From positions 188,035-252,034 of the forward strand of contig JAKASU010000001.1 in NCBI GenBank assembly GCA_021818925.1: 64,000 nucleotides of DNA, read 5' to 3'. Of this stretch, positions 1,867 to 39,800 are shown piece after piece (within the stretch, counting starts at the first letter, position 1; each line of letters starts with the position of its first letter). The stretch is from Candidatus Micrarchaeota archaeon. Its GTDB lineage: Archaea; Micrarchaeota; Micrarchaeia; Micrarchaeales; CABMGC01. The notes below the pieces were generated by a model, which searched no databases, was not told the origin of the DNA, and saw only the letters and a program-made list of their open reading frames with translations. The position numbers and the translations under genes were made by a program.

Positions 1867-2529
1867 ATGGACTACTCAGACACAACAGTACTCATACCCG
1901 TGAAGGACGAGCCCGCAGCGGGTCAGGTGGCCAGGGAGGTGTTGTCGAAACTGGCAGGGGCTAAGGTTATGGTCGTGTACAAGGGAGAGAGGGGCGCGAT
2001 GAACCTCAACTTCACCGACCCGAACATGAGCACAGTGGAGCAGACAGACTCAGGCAAGGGCACCGCGGTTCGCAGGGCCATCGGGCAGATAGGCACTCCT
2101 ATCTTCTGCCTGATTGACGGCGATGCCACGTACAGCGTTGACGATCTCCCAAAGGTCATAGGCATGGTCAGGGACGGAGCTGACATGGCGCTAGGCAACA
2201 GGTTCGCGCATCTGGACAGGAAGGCGATGCCGTTCTTCATAGAGCTCGGCAACAGGATAATAACGATGGTGGCAAACCTCCTCTATGGCATGCACCTCCA
2301 CGACTCGCAGACCGGACTCCGCGCTATAAGGAAGGGCTCGATAGAGAGGCTTGAACTACGCGAGAGCGGGTTCGGGATCGAGTCTGAGCTGAACATAAGG
2401 GCGAGGAAGGCTGGGTTGAGAATCGAGGAGACGCCGATAAGCTACGCTGTGCGCGTAGGGGCGTCGAAGCAGATGAAGCTCGTCGATGGCATCAAGCTGC
2501 TGCTGCTCGATTTCAAGTTCCTATTCTAG
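1867..2529 (+). CDS. GT2 glycosyltransferase, dolichol-phosphate glycosyltransferase-like
   Basis: VLIPVKDE, GKG, IDGDATY, DSQTG and FGIESE motifs. Confidence 0.9.
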   Translation: MDYSDTTVLIPVKDEPAAGQVAREVLSKLAGAKVMVVYKGERGAMNLNFTDPNMSTVEQTDSGKGTAVRRAIGQIGTPIFCLIDGDATYSVDDLPKVIGMVRDGADMALGNRFAHLDRKAMPFFIELGNRIITMVANLLYGMHLHDSQTGLRAIRKGSIERLELRESGFGIESELNIRARKAGLRIEETPISYAVRVGASKQMKLVDGIKLLLLDFKFLF

Positions 2530-2933
2530 CCGCTTATCTCATAGAGCGAGATGGCGAGCAGCGCTGCGGTGCAGATGTGCACGATGGTGCAGTAGACGCA
2601 GATGCTGCCAAGCACGTACTCTGCGTGCACAAAGTAGATGACAAAACCTATTCCTATTGCGTTGAGCACGGCGAGCGGCTCCGCCCTCTTCAGGTAGATG
2701 AGCGCCAGCACAGCAGCAAAGAAGAGCACGCCCAGGTAGCCGTTTGGTATGCCGAAGGTCTTAGCATAGACGCTGTTCAGCACTGCGCCGCAGTTGATTA
2801 CTCCGGCCGTAGGGCATGCGACCTGGACGTCGAACGCAGCCGAATAGGAGAGGTATACTGAGGAGAGCAGGCCTATTATCGCGAGCGCGATGCGCGCGTA
2901 CCAGAGCCTTTTGCCCAGATCCCTTGCGTGCAT
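2526..2933 (-). CDS. Vitamin K epoxide reductase (VKOR) family protein
   Basis: Four hydrophobic helices, loop cysteines C-x6-C, NSVYAKTFGIP and CVYC active site. Confidence 0.9.
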   Translation of the reverse strand: MHARDLGKRLWYARIALAIIGLLSSVYLSYSAAFDVQVACPTAGVINCGAVLNSVYAKTFGIPNGYLGVLFFAAVLALIYLKRAEPLAVLNAIGIGFVIYFVHAEYVLGSICVYCTIVHICTAALLAISLYEISG

Positions 2934-2934
2934 G

Positions 2935-3807
2935 CTAGCCCAGCTGCGCCTCTATGCCTTTGATGTACTGCTGGCCGCACACGCTCGCCGGCGTGTTGTT
3001 GTCGATAATGCATATCTGCGCCGTAACGAGGTTGGCGCTGCCTACAAGCGCCTGAGCCTGCGGGCTGCCCGGGTTGTGGAGATCGCTCGCTATACTGCTC
3101 CAGTTCATCCCGTCTATCACAGTAGGGTCGCCGAAGTTTCCTCCCACCTCTGTGGAATAGTTTGCGTAGTCGATGAAAGGTATGCTGCCTCCTGGGTTGT
3201 ACTTCGCGAAAATGGACTGCTCTGACGCGTTAAGCGTCTCGAGATTGGGATAGCCGCCTATGCTCGAGTTGTACTTGTTCGTTGTCAGTTCCCTTGCTAC
3301 GAAGACTATATATGGGCTGCTATACGTGGCGTTGGCAAACGTGAATGTAGGTGTGTTTGCATAGACGTCTGTGGCGCTGCTGGTCATGTACTCTAGACCG
3401 TTGAACGTGCCGAACCTCATCAGGGCTATGATGAGCGGCCACCTCTGCACCGCGCAGTAGGGGCAGTACTCAGCGCCAATGTATAGTATCTCGGGCTTGC
3501 CGCCTATTGCGAGCTTCGTTGCGTTGGCCTTTGTCGGGAAGTTGGTCGCAAACCCTGTGTATATCGCGGCACTCACGTTGTTTGGCACTGCGAGCTGCGC
3601 GAGCACGGATTGCGGGACCGGCTGCCCGTCGAACTGTGCTAGCTGCGCGCCCGTGCTGCCGCCGCCTCCGCCCCCTGTCAGGGTCAGGGCAGCCACCACT
3701 ATTATTATCACCGCTATTATGCCGCCGTAGAGCGCCTTCTTGTTGGAAAGGATCGAAGGCTTGCCAGTTGGCTGCTGCTGCGGCTGCTGTTGTTCTGCTC
3801 CCTCCAT
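2935..3807 (-). CDS. Membrane-anchored thioredoxin-fold protein (DUF929-like)
   Basis: N-terminal TM helix, YIGAEYCPYCA, RWPLIIAL.RFG, TPTFTF and IPF cis-Pro motif; directly upstream of VKOR. Confidence 0.85.
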   Translation of the reverse strand: MEGAEQQQPQQQPTGKPSILSNKKALYGGIIAVIIIVVAALTLTGGGGGGSTGAQLAQFDGQPVPQSVLAQLAVPNNVSAAIYTGFATNFPTKANATKLAIGGKPEILYIGAEYCPYCAVQRWPLIIALMRFGTFNGLEYMTSSATDVYANTPTFTFANATYSSPYIVFVARELTTNKYNSSIGGYPNLETLNASEQSIFAKYNPGGSIPFIDYANYSTEVGGNFGDPTVIDGMNWSSIASDLHNPGSPQAQALVGSANLVTAQICIIDNNTPASVCGQQYIKGIEAQLG

Positions 3808-31330: not shown

Positions 31331-32488
31331 TTAAAACTCGCGCATCGTTGACAGCGCCATGCTCCTGCTTGCGATCTTCGAAATGCCGATCTTGCCGAGC
31401 ATTGTTTTCATATCGCCTCTCCGCGTTTCTGTCTTGGGGTTTCTGGAGTTTATGGAGCAGACATCCCTGTAGGGTTTTATAGATTCCTCGAAAGTGCCTA
31501 TTTTTTTAGCCATGGCGATTATCTCCTCCTTGTCAAACCCGAAAAGCGGACGCATCACAGGCAACCTTATGCCCTGCTGCTCCGCGGCCATATTGCTTGA
31601 GGTCTGCGATGCGACCTGACCCAGGCTCTCGCCGGTAACAATCATATCGGCTTCTTCCCTGAGTGCCACTTTCTCTGCAATCCTGAGCATGAAGGCCTTG
31701 AGGAGCACGAGCTCGTATTTGCCGAACCTTGATGAGTTGGCCTGGAAGACGTATGAAGGGATGAAATATGTCTTGGAGTGCGGGTGGAACTCTGCGAGTT
31801 TGCTTATTATAATGGAAAGCTTGCTCCTCTCTGCTTCGCGATTGTCGCGGAAGGCATGCACGTGAAGGTAGACGGGTTCAAGGCCGCGCTTCATCGCGTA
31901 CCATGCGGCAACTGGCGAGTCTATTCCGCCTGATATGAGGATGACTGCTTTCCCGGAGCTGCCGACAGGCAGGCCTCCGGCGCCGCGTTCCCTGTTAAGC
32001 GTCAGGAAAGCCGCATCTTTGGTCACGCTGATGCTTAGTTTGCGTTCATACTCCTTCGGCTTTGGCTCTATTCCGAGCTTGTCGGCCGTCTTCTTCAGGC
32101 TGTCAACTATGTCCACCGAGGTAAACGGAAGCTGCTTGTACGACCTGTGCGAGTCTATCCTTATGCTGGCTGCCCGCGGTCTTCTGGAAAGCATCTTCTT
32201 TGCCGCGGATACGATCTCATCGAGTTCAGGCTTCGCTACGACCGAGAGCTCTATCGCGCTTATCCCGAAGACCTTCTTGAGTTTTGCGATGATCTTGTCC
32301 GCGTCGGAGCCTTTGCCGGGTCTCAGTGCAAGCCTGTCGAAGTTCCTCTGCAAGGAGAAATCCTCACCCGCCAGCTGCTCCCTTATGTTTCTTTCGAGAA
32401 GCCGTATGTAATAGTCTCTGTTGCCTCCCTTCAGCCAAAGCTCACCGAAGTGTACTATGATTAGTTCCTCGCCCTGCTTGAACTCCAT
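31331..32488 (-). CDS. thiI: tRNA 4-thiouridine synthase ThiI
   Basis: GELWLKG.NR, THUMP region, GGLPVG, SGGIDSPVA, TGESLGQVASQT and RPL...DK.EI. Confidence 0.95.
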   Translation of the reverse strand: MEFKQGEELIIVHFGELWLKGGNRDYYIRLLERNIREQLAGEDFSLQRNFDRLALRPGKGSDADKIIAKLKKVFGISAIELSVVAKPELDEIVSAAKKMLSRRPRAASIRIDSHRSYKQLPFTSVDIVDSLKKTADKLGIEPKPKEYERKLSISVTKDAAFLTLNRERGAGGLPVGSSGKAVILISGGIDSPVAAWYAMKRGLEPVYLHVHAFRDNREAERSKLSIIISKLAEFHPHSKTYFIPSYVFQANSSRFGKYELVLLKAFMLRIAEKVALREEADMIVTGESLGQVASQTSSNMAAEQQGIRLPVMRPLFGFDKEEIIAMAKKIGTFEESIKPYRDVCSINSRNPKTETRRGDMKTMLGKIGISKIASRSMALSTMREF

Positions 32489-32498
32489 AAAAAGAAAG

Positions 32499-32675
32499 CT
32501 ACTTCTTCTGCGCCTTGGTGAGCTCCTTGATCTCCTTTGGCCTCTGCTTCTTGTGCTGCACTGTGTCGAAGTTGTAGCACCGGTCTGAGCAGTAATACTT
32601 TACCGCTCCGGTCTTCTTGACGTACATTATGCCCGTCCCCCTCTCTATCTCCCTGGCGCAGTACGAGCACTTCAT
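32499..32675 (-). CDS. rpl24e: 50S ribosomal protein eL24 (absent from the ORF track)
   Basis: Hand translation [33 protein letters not shown]...; follows rps28e. Confidence 0.93.
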
Positions 32676-32679
32676 GCGA

Positions 32680-32910
32680 TCACTTCACGTTTATCGGCTT
32701 GTCCTCCCTGCTCGTGTCACCGAGCCTTATCATGTCGCCGACCTTGGCCCTGCCGCTTATGTTCCTCCTTATGACCCTACCCTTGTCCTTGCCTTCCATT
32801 ATCTTGCACATGACCTGTATGATGGAGCCGAACATTCCGGTCTTCCTTGGCTGTATCTCGACTATCTCCGCGAGGTAGCCGTCGTACTGCTTGGCCTGTT
32901 CCTCCGCCAT
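32680..32910 (-). CDS. rps28e: 30S ribosomal protein eS28
   Basis: TGM.G.I.QV.C.I.EG.DKGR.IRRN..G...GD. Confidence 0.95.
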
Positions 32911-32922
32911 CCAACTACCTAA

Positions 32923-33447
32923 TCACTGGGCCGTGGCCGCCTCTGGCTTTGGCGCTTCCTGCTTTGGCGCCTCTTGCTTAGGGGCCTCCTGCGGCTTCGC
33001 CTCCTTCTTCGGGGCCCTCTTCGGGGCTGCCTGCTTCGGGGTCTCAGCCTTTGGCGACGTTTCCTGCTTCGCTGCGCCTCCTCCCATCTTTCCTGACGCC
33101 CAGTTCGCCACCTCCTTAAGCTGCGACTGTCCTTCTCCAGCCTTCTCTATGGCCGCTGCGGCGCAAGGAACTCCAAGGCCCGCCGCCTTCCCAAGATCCA
33201 GTTTTGCGGGAACGAAAACGAACGGAATCTTCTTCTGCTCGCAGAGCGTAGGGATGTGCATAACCACCTCCTCAGGCTCGACGTCGCCCGCTATGACCAC
33301 AAGCGCCGCTATTCCGCGTTCCACGCTCTTGGTCACTTCGTTGACCCCCTTCCTGACAGATCCGCTCTGCTTCGCAAGCCTCAGGGCCTCGAGCGACTTG
33401 TCTGCTATCTCCTTTGGTACTTCGAACTTCGCGTATGTTTTTGCCAT
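32923..33447 (-). CDS. rpl7ae: 50S ribosomal protein L7Ae with low-complexity C-terminal tail
   Basis: RKGVNE.TK..ERG, DV.PEE...H.P.LC and LG.AAGL; SD GAGGTG. Confidence 0.96.
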   Translation of the reverse strand: MAKTYAKFEVPKEIADKSLEALRLAKQSGSVRKGVNEVTKSVERGIAALVVIAGDVEPEEVVMHIPTLCEQKKIPFVFVPAKLDLGKAAGLGVPCAAAAIEKAGEGQSQLKEVANWASGKMGGGAAKQETSPKAETPKQAAPKRAPKKEAKPQEAPKQEAPKQEAPKPEAATAQ

Positions 33448-33544
33448 ATAGACACCTCATCTCATTGGTGCAACAGAATCAGCACCGACAGCGAACACTC
33501 TGGCTCGCTTAAACATAATGTATACGCTGAAAGGCTTTTTAACC
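33336..33544. repeat. Copy 1 (functional) of the rpl7ae 5' end plus promoter duplication
   Basis: Near-identical to 34502-34680. Confidence 0.92.
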
Positions 33545-34411
33545 CTATCTCAGATAGCTCATCAGATCAAGTATTGCGCCTTCGCGGGCGGACACTTTCT
33601 CGCGGAAATCGCCATTGAGCTTCAGCATGAGATTCTCATAGGAGCCGCCTGTTGTCATTTTGACGTTTGAAAGTACTGCCACGCCGTTCTCGCTGCTTAT
33701 CGAGACCACGTTGATTATGTCCTTGCCCAGGGCGAACGCGGTGCCCAGGTCAAAGAGGCTTCCTGTGCTGCCCGTCCAGAATATCTGCACGCCAGCGACC
33801 TCCATCATCTTTGCGAGGTTCTGCCTGACTATGTTTATGCCTCCTTCAGGATCCACCTGCTCCGTCTGGTCACCTGGGTAATAACTGCTGCCTCCTTTCC
33901 TCTCGAAACTCTTTTTATGCTCGCGCAGCCTCTCAACGATCTCCTGGGGCGCATTCCTTACAGGGCATATCATGAACTCTGACCTGTCATCGATGAAGCT
34001 CTTTGTGTTGTTTTTTATCTGCTCCGGGAGCGCCGTTTTCCCTCCGGCAATATCGAGAATCACGTTGCTGTGCGACTTCCCCTGTGTTCTCTCGACCTCG
34101 TTGTCTATGACTATCTTTTTGCCCAACGCTACAGCCATCCCTAACTCGAAAAGAAGATCAGGATCCGGATACCTCCAGACAAAATGCACAACCTCTGCTT
34201 TCTTCATCGCCTCAAGGTCGCGATAGAATTCGAGTGTGGCCTTGTCAGCGTCCATCTCCTTCTTGTCCTGAGGGAAGTACGCCTTCTCCTTGTTTTTCTT
34301 CGCAATCAGGGCTTCTTGTTCAATCGTTGCCGAGTTTCCTCCGTTGGCATCGTTGGATCTCGGATAGGAATAGTATGCTAGCTTCTGCTTTGTGAAAAGA
34401 CCGAATCTCAA
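33545..34411 (-). CDS. Tandem nucleoside 2-deoxyribosyltransferase-like (NDT) domain protein
   Basis: Internal duplication: YFPQD...LLFELGMAVALGKKI...GKSHSNV and YYPGD...GSLFDLGTAFALGKDI...GGSYENL. Confidence 0.7.
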   Translation of the reverse strand: MRFGLFTKQKLAYYSYPRSNDANGGNSATIEQEALIAKKNKEKAYFPQDKKEMDADKATLEFYRDLEAMKKAEVVHFVWRYPDPDLLFELGMAVALGKKIVIDNEVERTQGKSHSNVILDIAGGKTALPEQIKNNTKSFIDDRSEFMICPVRNAPQEIVERLREHKKSFERKGGSSYYPGDQTEQVDPEGGINIVRQNLAKMMEVAGVQIFWTGSTGSLFDLGTAFALGKDIINVVSISSENGVAVLSNVKMTTGGSYENLMLKLNGDFREKVSAREGAILDLMSYLR

Positions 34412-34469
34412 TCAACCACAAAAGGGCTTTCTTATCCGTGTATTTAATCTTTTCTATGCTTTTGTTTGG

Positions 34470-34680
34470 TCAGTCTAGGTACTCCTGCGGTGCCGGAGGC
34501 TCTTCGTTGACCACTTCCTGACAGATTCGCTCTGCTTCGCAAGCCTCAGGGCCTCGAGCGACTTGTCTGCTATCTCCTTCGGTACTTCGAACTCATCTCA
34601 TTGGTGCAACAGAATCAGCACCGACAGCGAACACTCTGGCTCGCTTAAACGTAATGTATACGCTGAAAGGCCTTTTAACC
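34470..34680 (-). pseudogene. Chimeric scar: rpl7ae promoter/5' fragment fused to a fusA 3' end
   Basis: 34470-34502 matches fusA end 36101-36133 at 29/33; 34502-34680 matches 33336-33544 with a 29-nt deletion removing SD and ATG plus a 1-nt deletion. Confidence 0.9.
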
Positions 34681-34774
34681 GATTCGTTGCCAGAGTCAAA
34701 GCCGAACGGAATAGGATTATATAAATTTGCATTGAAGTGCATACGAACCCAAAGCGGGACGGGGATCTGGGAGT

Positions 34775-36094
34775 TTGGCGACCACTCTGAAACTCAATAA
34801 AGGCACGCCAGTAAACAGGCTGGATGAAGTATACAGGTCTTATCAGACAAGGTGCATAGAACACCTTGTTTCCAGGGTGGAACCGTCCGGCTACATCTCA
34901 GCCTCAAACGAGTACAAGCACTACGGAGCGCATTGGTTCCGCGACTCCTCGTTTGTCGCAATCTCCCTTCTCGAGTTTGCGGGGAGCAGGGGAGCAGACA
35001 GGGAGCACAAAGAGACCGCGCTCGCGGCGGCGACGAGAGTCATAGACAGGAACGTAGAAGAGATCGACAAGCTTACAGGGGCGATACGAAGGGCTGTAGA
35101 AACGGCGCTTGACAATGAGGACTTTTTCAAGCTATCGAATCAGATCTACTCAAGGTTCGGAAAGGAAGGCATGTTTGCCGAAGACACGTATCAGCTGGAG
35201 GTGAGGAGAAGCTGGCTGATGCAGCACGATTCGCTCCCGCTCCTGCTTCTCTCGCTGGAGAAGAAGGCAGACAGCTTCGGCCTGGCACCAAACGATAGGG
35301 AGTTCCTGAACAGGAACGCAAGGCTGTTCGCCGATTACCTAGGCAAGATATACCTGACAGAATGTTCGAACATATGGGAGATTGGATCCGACATGCTGCA
35401 TTCCTACGATGTTGCGTCGGTATACGCCGCTTTTAGGGCGATGGAGCACATGTGCAGGCTTGGTGAGATAGATTCGATGGAAGTGAATGAGGTAAGGGAA
35501 CGCGAATCGGGCCTGTTCCCCGGCGGCCCGCTTGGGTTTCTCAAGAAGTACTTTGTGAAGGACGGCGTGCTTTACAGCAGCAAAAGAAGATTCGAAGACC
35601 ACCCGGCGGAGGAGATGGGAGTGGACGCATCTGCTGTGTATGTGTTCACCGACCTGCAGCTGCGGAACGGCGAACTCGGCGCCGGAGTGGAGGAGAACAC
35701 GATACTAAAGGTGGAACGCGACCTCTTCGGGGATAGGAAGATGCCTTGGCGCTACCTTGGCGACAGGTACTTTGGCGGCAGACCATGGGTGCTTCTTGCG
35801 GAGAAGTTTGCCGCATACTATATTGAAAAGGGCAGTACTGAGAAGGCAATCGAGATACAGAATTATGTGATAGAGAAGTTCGGTGAGAGGTTGCCTGAGC
35901 AGGACAACGACTTTGCGCAGTTTCCTGGAGGGGACCTTGACGGTGAACTGGCCAGAAACGGCGGGAAGCCGATAGGCGAACTGGCGTGGTCGTATGCAGA
36001 AGCCGTACGTGCGCTGATGAAGATGCTGGATTCTGACGGCGCTGCTGAAACAAGCAGGCTGCTGTTCAGGCAGGCGGTCCAGATAAGAGGCTAG
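34775..36094 (+). CDS. Glycoside hydrolase family 15-like (glucoamylase/trehalase fold)
   Basis: W.RD (HWFRD), Q.D, IWE, VDAS, RY..D.Y.GG.PW, LPEQ and LAWS motifs. Confidence 0.85.
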   Translation: MATTLKLNKGTPVNRLDEVYRSYQTRCIEHLVSRVEPSGYISASNEYKHYGAHWFRDSSFVAISLLEFAGSRGADREHKETALAAATRVIDRNVEEIDKLTGAIRRAVETALDNEDFFKLSNQIYSRFGKEGMFAEDTYQLEVRRSWLMQHDSLPLLLLSLEKKADSFGLAPNDREFLNRNARLFADYLGKIYLTECSNIWEIGSDMLHSYDVASVYAAFRAMEHMCRLGEIDSMEVNEVRERESGLFPGGPLGFLKKYFVKDGVLYSSKRRFEDHPAEEMGVDASAVYVFTDLQLRNGELGAGVEENTILKVERDLFGDRKMPWRYLGDRYFGGRPWVLLAEKFAAYYIEKGSTEKAIEIQNYVIEKFGERLPEQDNDFAQFPGGDLDGELARNGGKPIGELAWSYAEAVRALMKMLDSDGAAETSRLLFRQAVQIRG

Positions 36095-36100
36095 CCAGAA

Positions 36101-38293
36101 TCAGTCCAGATACTCCTGCGGCGCTGGAGGCTCCTCCTTAAGCCCCTTCCTCTTCCTTATCTCCCTGACCACCTTGTCCTGCAGCTCCCTCGGCATCTTC
36201 TCATAGCCTGCGTACTCTGTATACCAGATGGCCCTGCCGGCCGTAGCCCCCCTTATCTCGTTAGAGAAGCCCTTGATTACCTCTGACACCGGCATCTTTG
36301 CTATTATCGTGACCGCCTCTCCTGATTGCTGCACCTCCTGCACCTGGCCCCTCCTGCTCTGCAGCATCGAGATCACCGGAGACATATACTCCTGCGGCAC
36401 GTTGACAGTGAATACCTGCTTTGGCTCGAGCAGCTGCACTCCGGAGATGAGCATGCCCGCCCAGATCGGCCTCCTCATCGCGGGCATTATCTGCGCCGGG
36501 CCCCTGTGCACCGGGTCCTCGTGTATGGTAGCGTCGGTTATGAGCACCTTCACTCCGTAGCACTTCTCCTTGGCAAGCGGCCCGTCCTTGACCGCTTCCT
36601 CGAATCCGTCTATCAGAAGCTCCTCGACCTCGTTCATGTACTGCACTCCCTTCGTCAGGTCTATGAGCACGCTAACCGTTGAAACGTCCCAGATGCCTCT
36701 CGCCTCCTCTCTCGGCATGCCGGCGGCGACGAGGTCCTCGAGGTACTGCTTGCTCTTCGGCTGGCCTTCCCTCACCGTGCCGTTCTCGATAAGGTCGATC
36801 ACTCCCTTCTCAAGCGGCATCACCGTTACCTCGAACTTCGAGTGCCTGTTCGGCGTCTTGCCCTCGATGTCCTTCGCCTCCTTTTCTATAGTCTCCTTGT
36901 AGAGCACTATGGGCTCGCTCGTTGTTATAGGTATCTTGAACTCGTCGCGTATCTTTGTCTCGACGACCTCAAGGTGCAGCTCTCCATTCCCGCTCACCAG
37001 GTGCTCGCCGGTCTCCTGGTTCAGGCTCACCACGATGCCGGGATCTGTCTTCGAAAGCTCCCTCAGCGCCTCTATGAGCTTGAGCGTGTCCTTCGACTCC
37101 TTGACCTCTATCGACTTGGTAACCACCGGCTTGGCGTAGTGGGTGATCTGCTCGAACGGTATTATGTTGCCCTCGCTGAGCGTGTCCCCTATCTGAAGGT
37201 CCTTTATTCCCACGATGGCCGATATGTTTCCCGCCTTTACCTCCTCGATCGGCACGCGGTCCGGCCCCATGTAGAGCCCAACCTGCTGTATCTTTTCGGT
37301 GTTTGGCCTCCCTGAAACGTATACCTCGGTTCCTTTCTTCACCGTGCCGGAGAACACCCTGCCAATAGCCACCTCTCCTCCGTGCGGATCGTAGCTTATT
37401 CCGAATACGACGACGTTCGCCTTCGCCTTCGGGTCTACTGCAAGCATCGCCTTTGCGTCTTCGCTCTGCATGTCGCCGTGCCAGAGGTGCGGTATCCTGT
37501 AGGCCTGCGCCTCCGCGGGATTGGGGAGGTGTTCGATCATCATCGTGAGCGTGGCTTCGTCTATCGGGGCTACCTCCTGCAGTTTCGCTATGTCCTGCTT
37601 CTCCGTGAGCTCAAATACCTGCTTGAACGTCGTCTTGTACTTCTCCATGATCCTCTTCGATATCGCCCACTTCTCGGCAGCGCTGCCGATGCACACGCTG
37701 CCGTCGTCCACGCTCACCTTCCACTTTCCGATGAACTCCTCGGGCGCGTAGCCGTCTATGAGCTTGTTTACGTCGTTTATCAGCTTGAGCAGCCTGTCGA
37801 ACGTCTGCTCGGGGGTGAGCTTGAGCTCTGTGAGGAGCCTGTCAACCTTATTGACGAACAGCACGGGTTTTGCCTTCTCCTTGAGTGCCTGCCTCACCAC
37901 CGTTTCCGTCTGCGGCATTATTCCCTCTACAGGGTCGACTACGACGACGACCCCGTCAACAGCTCGCATAGCCCTTGTTACGTGGAACCCGAAGTCGACG
38001 TGGCCGGGGGTGTCGATGAGGTTGATTATGTAGTCGTGTTCCTTGTAGTTGAACGACAGGGAGATGTTTGCCGACTTTATGGTCATCTTCCTGTCTCGCT
38101 CTATCGCCTCGTAGTTTGTCCAGAGAGCCTCGCCGGCCACGGTCTTCGATATTATTCCGGCTTTGGCGAGAAGCGAGTCTGTGAGCGTGGTCTTGCCGTG
38201 GTGCACGTGCGCCACTATGGCGACGTTGCGGATATGCTGCACGTCGCTCATTATCTTTGCGACTTCCTCGGCTACGAACTCCTTCCTTACCAT
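36101..38293 (-). CDS. fusA: Translation elongation factor aEF-2
   Basis: IRN...AH..HGKTT, DTPGHVDF, NKVD, GELHLE and HED.VHRG; follows rps12-rps7. Confidence 0.97.
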   Translation of the reverse strand: MVRKEFVAEEVAKIMSDVQHIRNVAIVAHVHHGKTTLTDSLLAKAGIISKTVAGEALWTNYEAIERDRKMTIKSANISLSFNYKEHDYIINLIDTPGHVDFGFHVTRAMRAVDGVVVVVDPVEGIMPQTETVVRQALKEKAKPVLFVNKVDRLLTELKLTPEQTFDRLLKLINDVNKLIDGYAPEEFIGKWKVSVDDGSVCIGSAAEKWAISKRIMEKYKTTFKQVFELTEKQDIAKLQEVAPIDEATLTMMIEHLPNPAEAQAYRIPHLWHGDMQSEDAKAMLAVDPKAKANVVVFGISYDPHGGEVAIGRVFSGTVKKGTEVYVSGRPNTEKIQQVGLYMGPDRVPIEEVKAGNISAIVGIKDLQIGDTLSEGNIIPFEQITHYAKPVVTKSIEVKESKDTLKLIEALRELSKTDPGIVVSLNQETGEHLVSGNGELHLEVVETKIRDEFKIPITTSEPIVLYKETIEKEAKDIEGKTPNRHSKFEVTVMPLEKGVIDLIENGTVREGQPKSKQYLEDLVAAGMPREEARGIWDVSTVSVLIDLTKGVQYMNEVEELLIDGFEEAVKDGPLAKEKCYGVKVLITDATIHEDPVHRGPAQIMPAMRRPIWAGMLISGVQLLEPKQVFTVNVPQEYMSPVISMLQSRRGQVQEVQQSGEAVTIIAKMPVSEVIKGFSNEIRGATAGRAIWYTEYAGYEKMPRELQDKVVREIRKRKGLKEEPPAPQEYLD

Positions 38294-38297
38294 GGAA

Positions 38298-39053
38298 CTA
38301 CCTTGCGCTCCTGGCGATTCTCTCTAGCTCTACCTTCTTCTTAATGGCGTAGCTTGCCGGGTCCTTGTTCGCTGAGAGGATCAGCTCTTCCGCGAGAGCG
38401 TCGGCGAGCGTCTTCTTGCTCTTGAAAGCGCCGATGAGGGACGAGAGCGCCATGTTCCTGAGAGCCACGTCGAGTCTCCTCGCCGCGCTTATTCCGACAG
38501 CGACGTTGTAGTTTATGCCTCCGTACCTTATTCTGGTTGTGTCCTCTATCGGTGCTGTGTTTTCGAGCGCGCTGACCAGCACCTGCGCAGGGTTCTTGCC
38601 GGTCTTCTTGTTTATGATCTCGAAAGCGGCCTCTACGATGTGCATCACCTTCACCTTCTTGCCCTGCAGCGCGCCCTTGGTGCGTATCACCTTGCCGCCG
38701 ATCTTCTGGCCGGTTCCTCCGCGCATGAGCTTGTTCATCAGCCTCTCTACTATGTTGACGTGCGTGACGTAGTAGACCCTGTTCTTCCTCCTTCCGAAGG
38801 TGTTAGGGAATGCCTTCGGCGCGAGCACTATGTAGTTCGCAAGGCTGGGGTCGTTAACCGAGACCTCCTTGAGGCTGTACTTGCCGAAGAGCAGGGATTC
38901 GGAGAAGGCTATGTTCTCCTTCTTCGCGGACCTTCTCGCGGTCTTCTTCTCCGGCTTGGCGGCTAAGGGAGCAGCGGGGGCGCTCTCGGCGGTTGCTGGC
39001 GCTTTCCCTTCCTTCTTCTCCTCTGCCGGCTGCTCCTTCTTTTCCTCTTCCAA
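38298..39053 (-). CDS. rps7: 30S ribosomal protein uS7 with N-terminal extension
   Basis: LFGKY, IVERL.N.LMR, NP.Q....A.EN and E.ER.A.SAR. Confidence 0.95.
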   Translation of the reverse strand: MEEEKKEQPAEEKKEGKAPATAESAPAAPLAAKPEKKTARRSAKKENIAFSESLLFGKYSLKEVSVNDPSLANYIVLAPKAFPNTFGRRKNRVYYVTHVNIVERLMNKLMRGGTGQKIGGKVIRTKGALQGKKVKVMHIVEAAFEIINKKTGKNPAQVLVSALENTAPIEDTTRIRYGGINYNVAVGISAARRLDVALRNMALSSLIGAFKSKKTLADALAEELILSANKDPASYAIKKKVELERIARSAR

Positions 39054-39057
39054 CTCA

Positions 39058-39492
39058 CTACCTCTTCGGCTTATCTATCTTGCCCTTCACCACCTGGAAC
39101 AGGTCAGCCCCGTTGACGCCTATTACCCTGTACTTGAGGCCTGGTATGCATCCCATCTGGCCGCGCTGGGAGCCCCCAAGTCCCTGTATCATAACCTCGT
39201 CGTGCTCCTCTATGAAGTTGACCGCACCGTCGTACGGCACGTACGCGCCGACAACCTTGCCGTTCTTCACGAGCTGCACCCTAACGCACTTTATCAGACC
39301 AGAGTGCGGCTGCTTCTGCTGCAGCACGAACTTCGCCAGCACAAGAGCCCTCGCCATCGGAACCGTGCCGACGGGGTCGTACTTCTGCTTCAGCTTGAAG
39401 TACTTCCTCTTCCACCACTTCTTCAGCAGGCGCTCCTGCTTTCTCTTCTTCTTGAGCTTCAACGCAGCGAATTCTCCGTTTGCCATGGTCAT
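39058..39492 (-). CDS. rps12: 30S ribosomal protein uS12
   Basis: KQP.S...KCVRVQL.KNGK, P.DGA..FI.EHDEV and IPG. Confidence 0.95.
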   Translation of the reverse strand: MTMANGEFAALKLKKKRKQERLLKKWWKRKYFKLKQKYDPVGTVPMARALVLAKFVLQQKQPHSGLIKCVRVQLVKNGKVVGAYVPYDGAVNFIEEHDEVMIQGLGGSQRGQMGCIPGLKYRVIGVNGADLFQVVKGKIDKPKR

Positions 39493-39800
39493 CTATACTC
39501 TTCGGTAAGTATCTTCGAGTTTCCAGGTTCGAGCACAGCCAGGCTGTTTATCGAGTAGGGCTTGCCGCACACGGTGCCGAGCTCCATGGAGCTGCCCTTG
39601 AACATCACGAGCTTTATGCCGGCGACGTTGCAGAGGTGTGTTATGTCGTCCGTGGCGCCCGCCTTGCCCTTGCTTGTTATGACCACAAGCTTGGCCCTGT
39701 TGCTGTGCACCGCCTTCTGCGTCTCCGCTGTGCCGAGGGCAACGCTTCCAGTATCCACAGCGAGCCTTAGGTCGTTGTTCAAATCTGCCACGCTAACCAT
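39489..39800 (-). CDS. rpl30e: 50S ribosomal protein eL30
   Basis: AVDTG.V.LG, ELG..CGKP and PG.S.IL. Confidence 0.95.
   Translation of the reverse strand: MVSVADLNNDLRLAVDTGSVALGTAETQKAVHSNRAKLVVITSKGKAGATDDITHLCNVAGIKLVMFKGSSMELGTVCGKPYSINSLAVLEPGNSKILTEEYR

Follow-up and report, generated by a model that had tools for sequence, protein, structure and literature searches.

Two translation genes, aEF-2 and rpl7ae, enclose two accessory genes in this Micrarchaeota genome, and between the accessory genes lies a 211-nt hybrid made of a copy of the start of rpl7ae fused to a copy of the end of aEF-2. The locus raises the question of how pieces of both flanking genes came to be joined between the two cargos, and whether the hybrid still does anything. 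We analysed the window, i.e., the whole stretch of 64,000 nt (contig JAKASU010000001.1, positions 188,035 to 252,034), to which all coordinates refer unless a locus of a relative (L numbers) is named. The genome has 760,734 bp in 3 contigs and is 97.55% complete.

Layout of the locus and anatomy of the hybrid

The features of the locus are given in minus-strand order.

36101..38293, minus: aEF-2 (fusA homologue), intact, 730 aa; ORF with eight Pfam EF-G/EF-Tu domains
36133-36101, minus: last 33 nt of aEF-2, copy a of the repeated end
34775..36094, plus: cargo 1, GH15-like glycoside hydrolase candidate, (alpha/alpha)6-type, 439 aa
34681..34774, no strand assigned: upstream region of the GH15-like gene (its promoter), conserved with relative G006 to about 35 nt before the fossil promoter
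34503..34680, minus: fossil copy b', rpl7ae promoter with TATA-like box, leader and codons 8-37 (by alignment)
34592..34650, minus: 59-nt exact repeat, equal to 33456-33514, the longest exact run between the fossil and intact rpl7ae copies
34672, 34651, 34580, 34527, 34513: substitutions in fossil copy b'
between 34594 and 34591 (ambiguous by 2 nt): joint of a 29-nt deletion
near 34514 (intact copy: near 33349): 1-nt deletion
34503/34502 (+/- 2 nt): illegitimate joint between the rpl7ae fragment and the aEF-2 end
34470..34502, minus: fossil copy a', last 10 codons of aEF-2 plus TGA (by sequence comparison)
34412..34469, minus: spacer containing a TATA-like promoter that belongs to the NDT gene; homologous to what follows the aEF-2 stop in relative G010
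33545..34411, minus: cargo 2, NDT-like protein, 288 aa, with two nucleoside 2-deoxyribosyltransferase-type stretches
33448..33544, minus: functional rpl7ae promoter and leader (copy b)
32923..33447, minus: rpl7ae, intact, 174 aa
32680-32910, minus: rps28e, downstream of rpl7ae
32499-32675, minus: rpl24e, following rps28e

The minus-strand order of genes is S7, aEF-2, GH15-like (on the opposite strand), hybrid, NDT-like, rpl7ae, rps28e, rpl24e. From aEF-2 to rpl7ae this is the order given in the first-pass annotation, to which one correction applies: the GH15-like gene is on the plus strand, so that it is convergent with aEF-2 (6 nt separate the stops) and divergent from the fossil promoter. 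Its product matched Pfam Glyco_hydro_15 weakly (E 2e-4, 20.9 bits against a cut-off of 22 bits) and, far below threshold, an NCBIfam oligosaccharide amylase (E 0.0026). The NDT-like protein matched Pfam PF05014 in 2 stretches (E 1.9e-14) and nothing in NCBIfam. Neither cargo protein had a match among PDB sequences at E <= 0.01, and a search of positions 32000-39500 against Rfam returned no family at E <= 1. The two cargo genes were the only long ORFs of the 2.65-kb insert and neither was recombinase-like. At the other end of the locus, the C-terminal tail of L7Ae (about 40-50 residues; 32923-33040, minus strand) was rich in lysine, glutamate, proline and alanine with short repeats, and relatives aligned with the protein over residues 1-136 only.

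Alignment of the rpl7ae part of the hybrid (34680-34503) with the intact gene start (33544-33336) gave 174 identical bases out of 179, with 5 substitutions and three blocks of 87, 79 and 13 nt. The 29-nt gap corresponds to intact positions 33457-33429 and took away codons 1-7 together with 8 nt of the leader, among them the 3' part of the SD, and the 1-nt gap shifts the frame. The upstream edge of the promoter, where cargo is inserted, is exactly where homology to rpl7ae sets in, and the joint is where it stops. Beyond that edge the two promoter copies are preceded by unrelated sequence, with 12 identical positions in 40 nt. On the other side of the joint, 34502-34470 reads EPPAPQEYLD* and agreed with the intact aEF-2 end (36133-36101) at 29 of 33 bases; all four differences were synonymous and at third codon positions, the peptide being identical in both copies. 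Both halves had thus been described correctly at first pass, the aEF-2 end with its four synonymous changes as well as the rpl7ae promoter and 5' end, which before the 1-nt deletion read in frame into it (...RKGVNE-EPPAPQEYLD*).

An agreement of at least 29 in 33 bases is expected by chance at 4.7e-14 per position, or about 6e-9 for the window on both strands, and a chance match was rejected as source of the aEF-2 end copy. In the genome itself, matches to the hybrid were three: the hybrid, the real rpl7ae start and the aEF-2 end. Together these form direct repeats that interleave as a, b', a', b. Self-comparison of 12 loci (this one and those of 11 relatives, see below) found internal repeats of this kind here and nowhere else. 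Its SD and ATG are deleted, its frame is broken by 1 nt, one of its changes is non-synonymous and each of the 5 substitutions is derived. On these features the 211-nt element is a fossil; it is best read as a recombination scar, and no function is indicated for it. Decay in its two halves was of similar size.

Cargo between aEF-2 and rpl7ae in related genomes

A 3.3-kb query was compared with 41 genomes, of which 33 matched. Twelve genomes were relatives from the same genus, and 11 of these gave an aEF-2/rpl7ae locus, in the following states.

Direct aEF-2|rpl7ae adjacency, gaps of 102-113 nt: G003, G009, G011, G012 (4/11)
Same NDT-like gene alone: G010 (79% aa identity), G004 (56%) (2/11)
Divergent NDT-like gene alone: G007 (31%) (1/11)
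GH15-like gene (66%) plus divergent NDT-like gene: G006 (1/11)
Other cargo: G005, G001, G008 (3/11)

The cargo of G005 was a 141-aa ORF of no family. G001 (L014, 1952-2526) had a pair of short ORFs (105 and 94 aa) that overlap; the second of them matched a ParE toxin below threshold (E 0.008), and the pair may be a toxin-antitoxin cargo. The spacer of G008 (L013) was about 2.9 kb long and coded at 2505-3530 for a 342-aa protein with two AsnC-type HTH domains. Five or more states were therefore found at the same flanks among the 11 genus relatives, which makes the aEF-2/rpl7ae spacer a cargo hot spot. The variability claimed for this junction was borne out, with direct adjacency in 4/11, the NDT-like gene alone in 2/11 (plus 1 divergent) and a GH15-like gene at the same place in 1/11. 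In other genera, aEF-2 directly adjoined rpl7ae at 5/5 loci holding both genes (L018-L022); three further genomes had matches to the two genes on different contigs.

The two cargos had different distributions. GH15-like homologues were present in 56 of 201 genomes of the order and in the genus, besides this genome, only in G006 (1/10 sampled); the next best match after that of G006 was 42% identical and at another locus. NDT-like genes occurred in 8 of the 201 genomes, mostly in this genus. Two versions of the NDT-like gene (window 33545-34411 compared with L006 3058-3921 and L009 1999-2859), both coding for about 288 aa and with 31-36% amino acid identity, occupied the same position in different species, in which the flanking aEF-2 was about 89% identical; so deep a divergence suggests old allelic lineages or fast evolution of an accessory gene. 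We also observed a similar A-rich motif with a TATA-like box after the aEF-2 stop (34412-34469; first ~40 nt in L005, L007, L009 and L012). The motif recurred in alleles with cargo of any sort, be it NDT type 1, NDT type 2 or the ORF without family in G005, and would be a promoter shared by the cassettes or else a conserved border on the left of the hot spot.

The comparison also indicated which parts of the locus belong together. The sequence that follows the fossil aEF-2 stop was plainly homologous to that following the intact aEF-2 stop of G010, and more loosely to that of G004, G007 and G005. Because of the homology to G010, the fossil aEF-2 end, the NDT promoter and the NDT-like gene form one collinear block, which on this sequence comparison is the remnant of an allele aEF-2 / NDT / rpl7ae. 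The collinearity of the fossil aEF-2 end with the aEF-2-stop-to-NDT junction of NDT-only relatives agrees with the two-allele proposal of the first pass. On the other side, the GH15-like gene abuts the aEF-2 stop convergently both here (6 nt) and in G006 (4 nt), its upstream region is conserved between the two, and in this genome that region runs straight into the rpl7ae promoter copy. Such a junction implies a second allele, aEF-2 / GH15 / rpl7ae.

No GH15-only allele was found among the 11 genus loci, the sole other carrier (G006) having a second cargo and no scar. Of the strain alleles to be sought according to the first-pass annotation, the NDT-only and directly adjacent ones therefore exist among the relatives and the GH15-only one was not encountered. 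A search for GH15-like proteins in metagenome contigs, from which records of this genome may have been excluded, gave 33 pattern matches, none confirmed by tblastn. Matching the fossil 33-mer to other fusA alleles was equally fruitless: a degenerate 33-mer for the EPPAPQEYLD* end had 0 matches in metagenome contigs and 0 in genome contigs (again possibly without records of this genome), the peptide end EPPAPQEYLD was absent from the two collections scanned and from the 10 relatives compared, and the 33-mer itself differed at 6-9 of 33 bases from the 10 relatives, as against 4 of 33 from the genome's own aEF-2. Between the two cargos of G006, self-blastn and local alignment revealed no piece of rpl7ae or aEF-2; local scores there reached 16-22 at best, which is chance level. 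As G006 stacks GH15-like and NDT-like genes without a scar, stacking can also arise, or be tidied, in another way.

Origin of the scar

Divergence was uneven between the two pairs of repeats. The aEF-2 ends differed at 4/33 positions and the rpl7ae copies at 5/178 (Fisher p = 0.036), and at third positions the values were 4/10 and 1/30 (Fisher p = 0.010), small numbers in both tests. Polarised with the relatives, all five substitutions of the fossil rpl7ae copy were derived and the intact copy had none; the fossil aEF-2 end had at least two derived synonymous states and the working one at least one. At the time of the event the rpl7ae copies thus look to have been nearly or fully identical, and the aEF-2 ends not. 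In the ten codons of the aEF-2 end, 21 of 90 possible single changes are synonymous, so that four synonymous changes out of four have P = 0.003 under random change, and decay alone at the rate of the rpl7ae fossil (5/178) would yield four or more synonymous differences with P = 0.002. Such low values argue that the aEF-2 ends diverged while both were parts of working genes, and the earlier case against local decay of the fossil end is supported. A sliding 120-nt comparison of the last 1290 nt of aEF-2 with 6 relatives gave no donor signal: identity was 70-90% throughout, with no switch of nearest relative and no breakpoint.

The joint between the two halves lies on a patch where both genes encode RKG: aEF-2 (RKGLKEEP) and rpl7ae (RKGVNEVT) share 17 of 24 bases in register, nine of which are consecutive. 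Among the 1,086,669 pairs of 24-nt windows between the two genes, no more than 43 reached 17/24. The joining was therefore guided by microhomology, as had been proposed for one side of the event, and since both genes read the patch in the same frame, the product is in frame without any need for selection.

The scar is probably the outcome of a recombination, homologous on one side and directed by microhomology on the other, that joined a GH15-bearing and an NDT-bearing allele; in its essentials this supports the interpretation made at first pass. Judging from the pattern of alleles, the cargos of the hot spot would normally be swapped by homologous recombination in the conserved flanks. In this case the alleles aEF-2 / GH15 / rpl7ae and aEF-2 / NDT / rpl7ae would have been joined instead of swapped: one end, on the aEF-2 side of the GH15 fragment, would have been anchored by ordinary homology, and the other closed illegitimately, with rpl7ae codon 37 of the GH15 allele linked to aEF-2 codon -11 of the NDT allele. 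The mirror image, in which an NDT fragment enters a GH15 chromosome and is anchored in the rpl7ae operon, would be equally possible; a homologous anchor leaves no trace in the sequence. The product would have been aEF-2 / GH15 / rpl7ae'::'aEF-2 / NDT / rpl7ae, with both cargos kept and both essential flank genes intact. The in-frame stub would then have decayed by the 29-nt loss (SD, ATG and the 3' arm of a leader hairpin, see below), the 1-nt frameshift and 5 substitutions. Divergence of the aEF-2 ends as working genes before the event explains why their differences are purely synonymous. Given the uneven divergence of the repeat pairs, a single meeting of two evenly diverged strains is too simple. 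The unevenness suggests a meeting of alleles inside one species, the present aEF-2 end having come earlier, together with GH15, from a more distant lineage.

Tandem duplication and unequal crossing-over create a new joint of a downstream 5' fragment and an upstream 3' fragment at a microhomology. The scar is like their products in the type of its joint and in the interleaved repeats a, b', a', b, and differs from them in that its repeat pairs are unequal in divergence and its units in content. Since the first unit holds the GH15-like gene and the second the NDT-like gene, plain tandem duplication was rejected as the sole explanation. A duplication followed by a replacement is unlikely, though not negligibly so: in an aEF-2 / NDT / rpl7ae ancestor the same microhomology would have led to tandem duplication of the segment from the aEF-2 end through NDT to the rpl7ae start, and a GH15 allele would later have replaced the first NDT copy and, homologously, the aEF-2 end too, with the right-hand crossover inside the truncated rpl7ae copy. 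Such a history has the classic duplication joint to its credit, accounts directly for a fossil rpl7ae without pre-existing divergence (all 5 substitutions derived) and explains why the working aEF-2 end is the diverged one. However, it requires two rare steps, and the GH15 allele would have to choose a truncated target of 180 nt over the longer intact rpl7ae operon 1.1 kb away, where recombination would have erased the duplication. Moreover, a plain NDT duplication was seen at none of the 11 genus-relative loci when the 12 loci were self-compared.

Uneven divergence of the repeat pairs would also follow if a single event between well-diverged lineages had been succeeded by gene conversion, in which the intact rpl7ae start overwrote the fossil 1.1 kb away and the deletions and substitutions came later. 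The repeats are indeed direct, close and share the 59-nt exact run, but nothing positive speaks for conversion and the extra step is needless if the alleles were within-species, which makes this course quite improbable.

The placement of the scar was examined in Logan contigs from four runs of four studies, none flagged as a possible source of the deposited DNA; the runs containing the stretch were mine drainage, sediment and tailings metagenomes. Single contigs (33516-34580 in run X7, 33485-34549 in X8) led from the rpl7ae promoter through NDT, the fossil aEF-2 end and the joint into the rpl7ae fragment, a contig covering 34551-34621 in both runs spanned the 29-nt deletion joint, and others (34652-36600 in X7, 34621-36600 in X8) ran from the fossil promoter through GH15 into aEF-2. 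A joint skipping either cargo was not seen in the contigs of the four runs. The low-depth runs X11 and X13, from two further studies, had fragments of both cargos with 0-1 differing letters, and uncovered bins. The check for spanning sequence called for at first pass was thus answered in part: contigs of two studies bridge every joint specific to the scar. The one part of the structure that they do not bridge is the 59-nt exact repeat, since no contig passes through it into unique sequence at either end. At position 34550 the sole contig of X7 had A for G (depth 15.5 of 15.5), as did a minor contig of X8 (depth 2 of 23.3); this may be a polymorphism inside the fossil or an alignment effect caused by the repeat.

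The uncrossed repeat leaves room for an assembly artefact, with an alternative pairing at the 59 nt, i.e., a chromosome reading aEF-2 / GH15 / rpl7ae, and the stub plus NDT on a 1.13-kb circle or in a second strain. We regard this as very unlikely: the deletion joint, the rpl7ae'::'aEF-2 joint and the passages into NDT and from NDT into the promoter are on single contigs in two studies, contig depth (a weak measure) was about equal on both sides and similar across the parts (~15 in X7, 8-10 in X8), and a one-gene circle of 1.13 kb without replication function would hardly hold a 1:1 ratio across samples. Even so the scar would be real and only its placement would change, and the deposited 3-contig genome has the reported order.

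The least credible alternative is a site-specific integration, by which a GH15 element targeted the aEF-2 3' end and brought a replacement end, like integrative elements at tRNA genes, the old end being an att remnant. The GH15 segment does lie between direct repeats of the gene end, and the protein is left whole by the incoming copy. As sole explanation, however, this was rejected: the 2.65-kb insert has no integrase or recombinase ORF, the GH15-like gene of G006 occupies the site although the aEF-2 end is not repeated there, and the element's other end is a piece of the neighbouring chromosomal gene rpl7ae, so that the element was cut from a chromosome and is not a dedicated mobile unit.

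Known parallels and the rpl7ae leader

The proposed joining of a GH15-bearing to an NDT-bearing allele resembles homology-facilitated illegitimate recombination (HFIR), which is known from the naturally transformable bacteria Acinetobacter, Streptococcus pneumoniae and Pseudomonas stutzeri (as cited in PMC5361080). As HFIR is outlined there, one anchor is homologous, the other end closes at a short GC-rich microhomology, DNA is added and not swapped, and the event is rare relative to homologous replacement. The present case differs in being read from a scar, in a DPANN archaeon without a known transformation system, and in that both partners were alleles of one locus, so that the product looks like that of an unequal crossover. 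The literature retrieved with the name of the mechanism and archaea had no archaeal case among the matches listed, and the main text of the paper on HGT in Micrarchaeota makes no mention of GH15, glucoamylase, deoxyribosyltransferase or illegitimate recombination.

The same mechanism is proposed, in the part of PMC5361080 concerned with these systems, for arrays of orphan immunity genes of the Vibrio cholerae T6SS and for orphaned 3' ends of Rhs/CDI genes. According to that account, the incoming module is added in front, and the old one is kept downstream with a stub of the 3' end of the conserved upstream gene, as is the case here. Those modules, in the same account, are toxin-immunity pairs under diversifying selection, the retained genes giving immunity; here, in contrast, a sugar hydrolase candidate and a nucleoside-transferase-like gene lie between two translation genes, and part of the downstream flank gene is included in the stub as well. 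The kind of event is therefore already known; what is new is the example in an archaeal genome and the newly described hot spot, and no new molecular system is involved.

Recombination scars that keep both parental ends are rare, and the way in which a gene was gained can be read from them directly, with no need for trees. At the aEF-2/rpl7ae hot spot of one Micrarchaeota genus, accessory genes have been exchanged between lineages, and at least once an illegitimate join guided by microhomology probably added a gene and did not replace one, in a 0.76-Mb genome otherwise shaped by loss. Going further, and tentatively, the scar might record HFIR between co-existing DPANN strains, that is, uptake and integration of DNA among host-dependent cells, with one-sided recombination as a route of gene gain in tiny genomes. 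A bolder addition to the HFIR reading is that the captured copy of the ribosomal-protein promoter putatively still fires and co-drives the NDT-like gene; the fossil TATA box carries one substitution. The joint at 34503/34502 can serve as a marker for tracking the lineage in mine-drainage metagenomes and for seeking the parental alleles.

The leader lost in part by the fossil has a possible function of its own in the intact gene. In other archaea, according to the description of the element in PMC6298567, the autoregulatory L7Ae leader contains a K-turn, a hairpin whose stem includes the SD and which has a 3-nt bulge and two G-A steps. The leader of rpl7ae here (33448-33500, minus strand; L005-L015 in the relatives) can form a hairpin whose 5-bp stem was invariant in 10/10 genus sequences, with the SD as its 3' arm, and whose 10-nt loop, by eye and against that description, fits the 3-nt bulge and two G-A steps. 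The intact hairpin is, by inspection, a candidate L7Ae-binding K-turn or K-loop; the stem, being invariant in all ten leaders, gives no covariation support. In the fossil the 3' arm of the hairpin is deleted, so that this copy is predicted no longer to bind L7Ae in the known form. A second hairpin, upstream in the leader, showed some compensatory changes (3 pairs).
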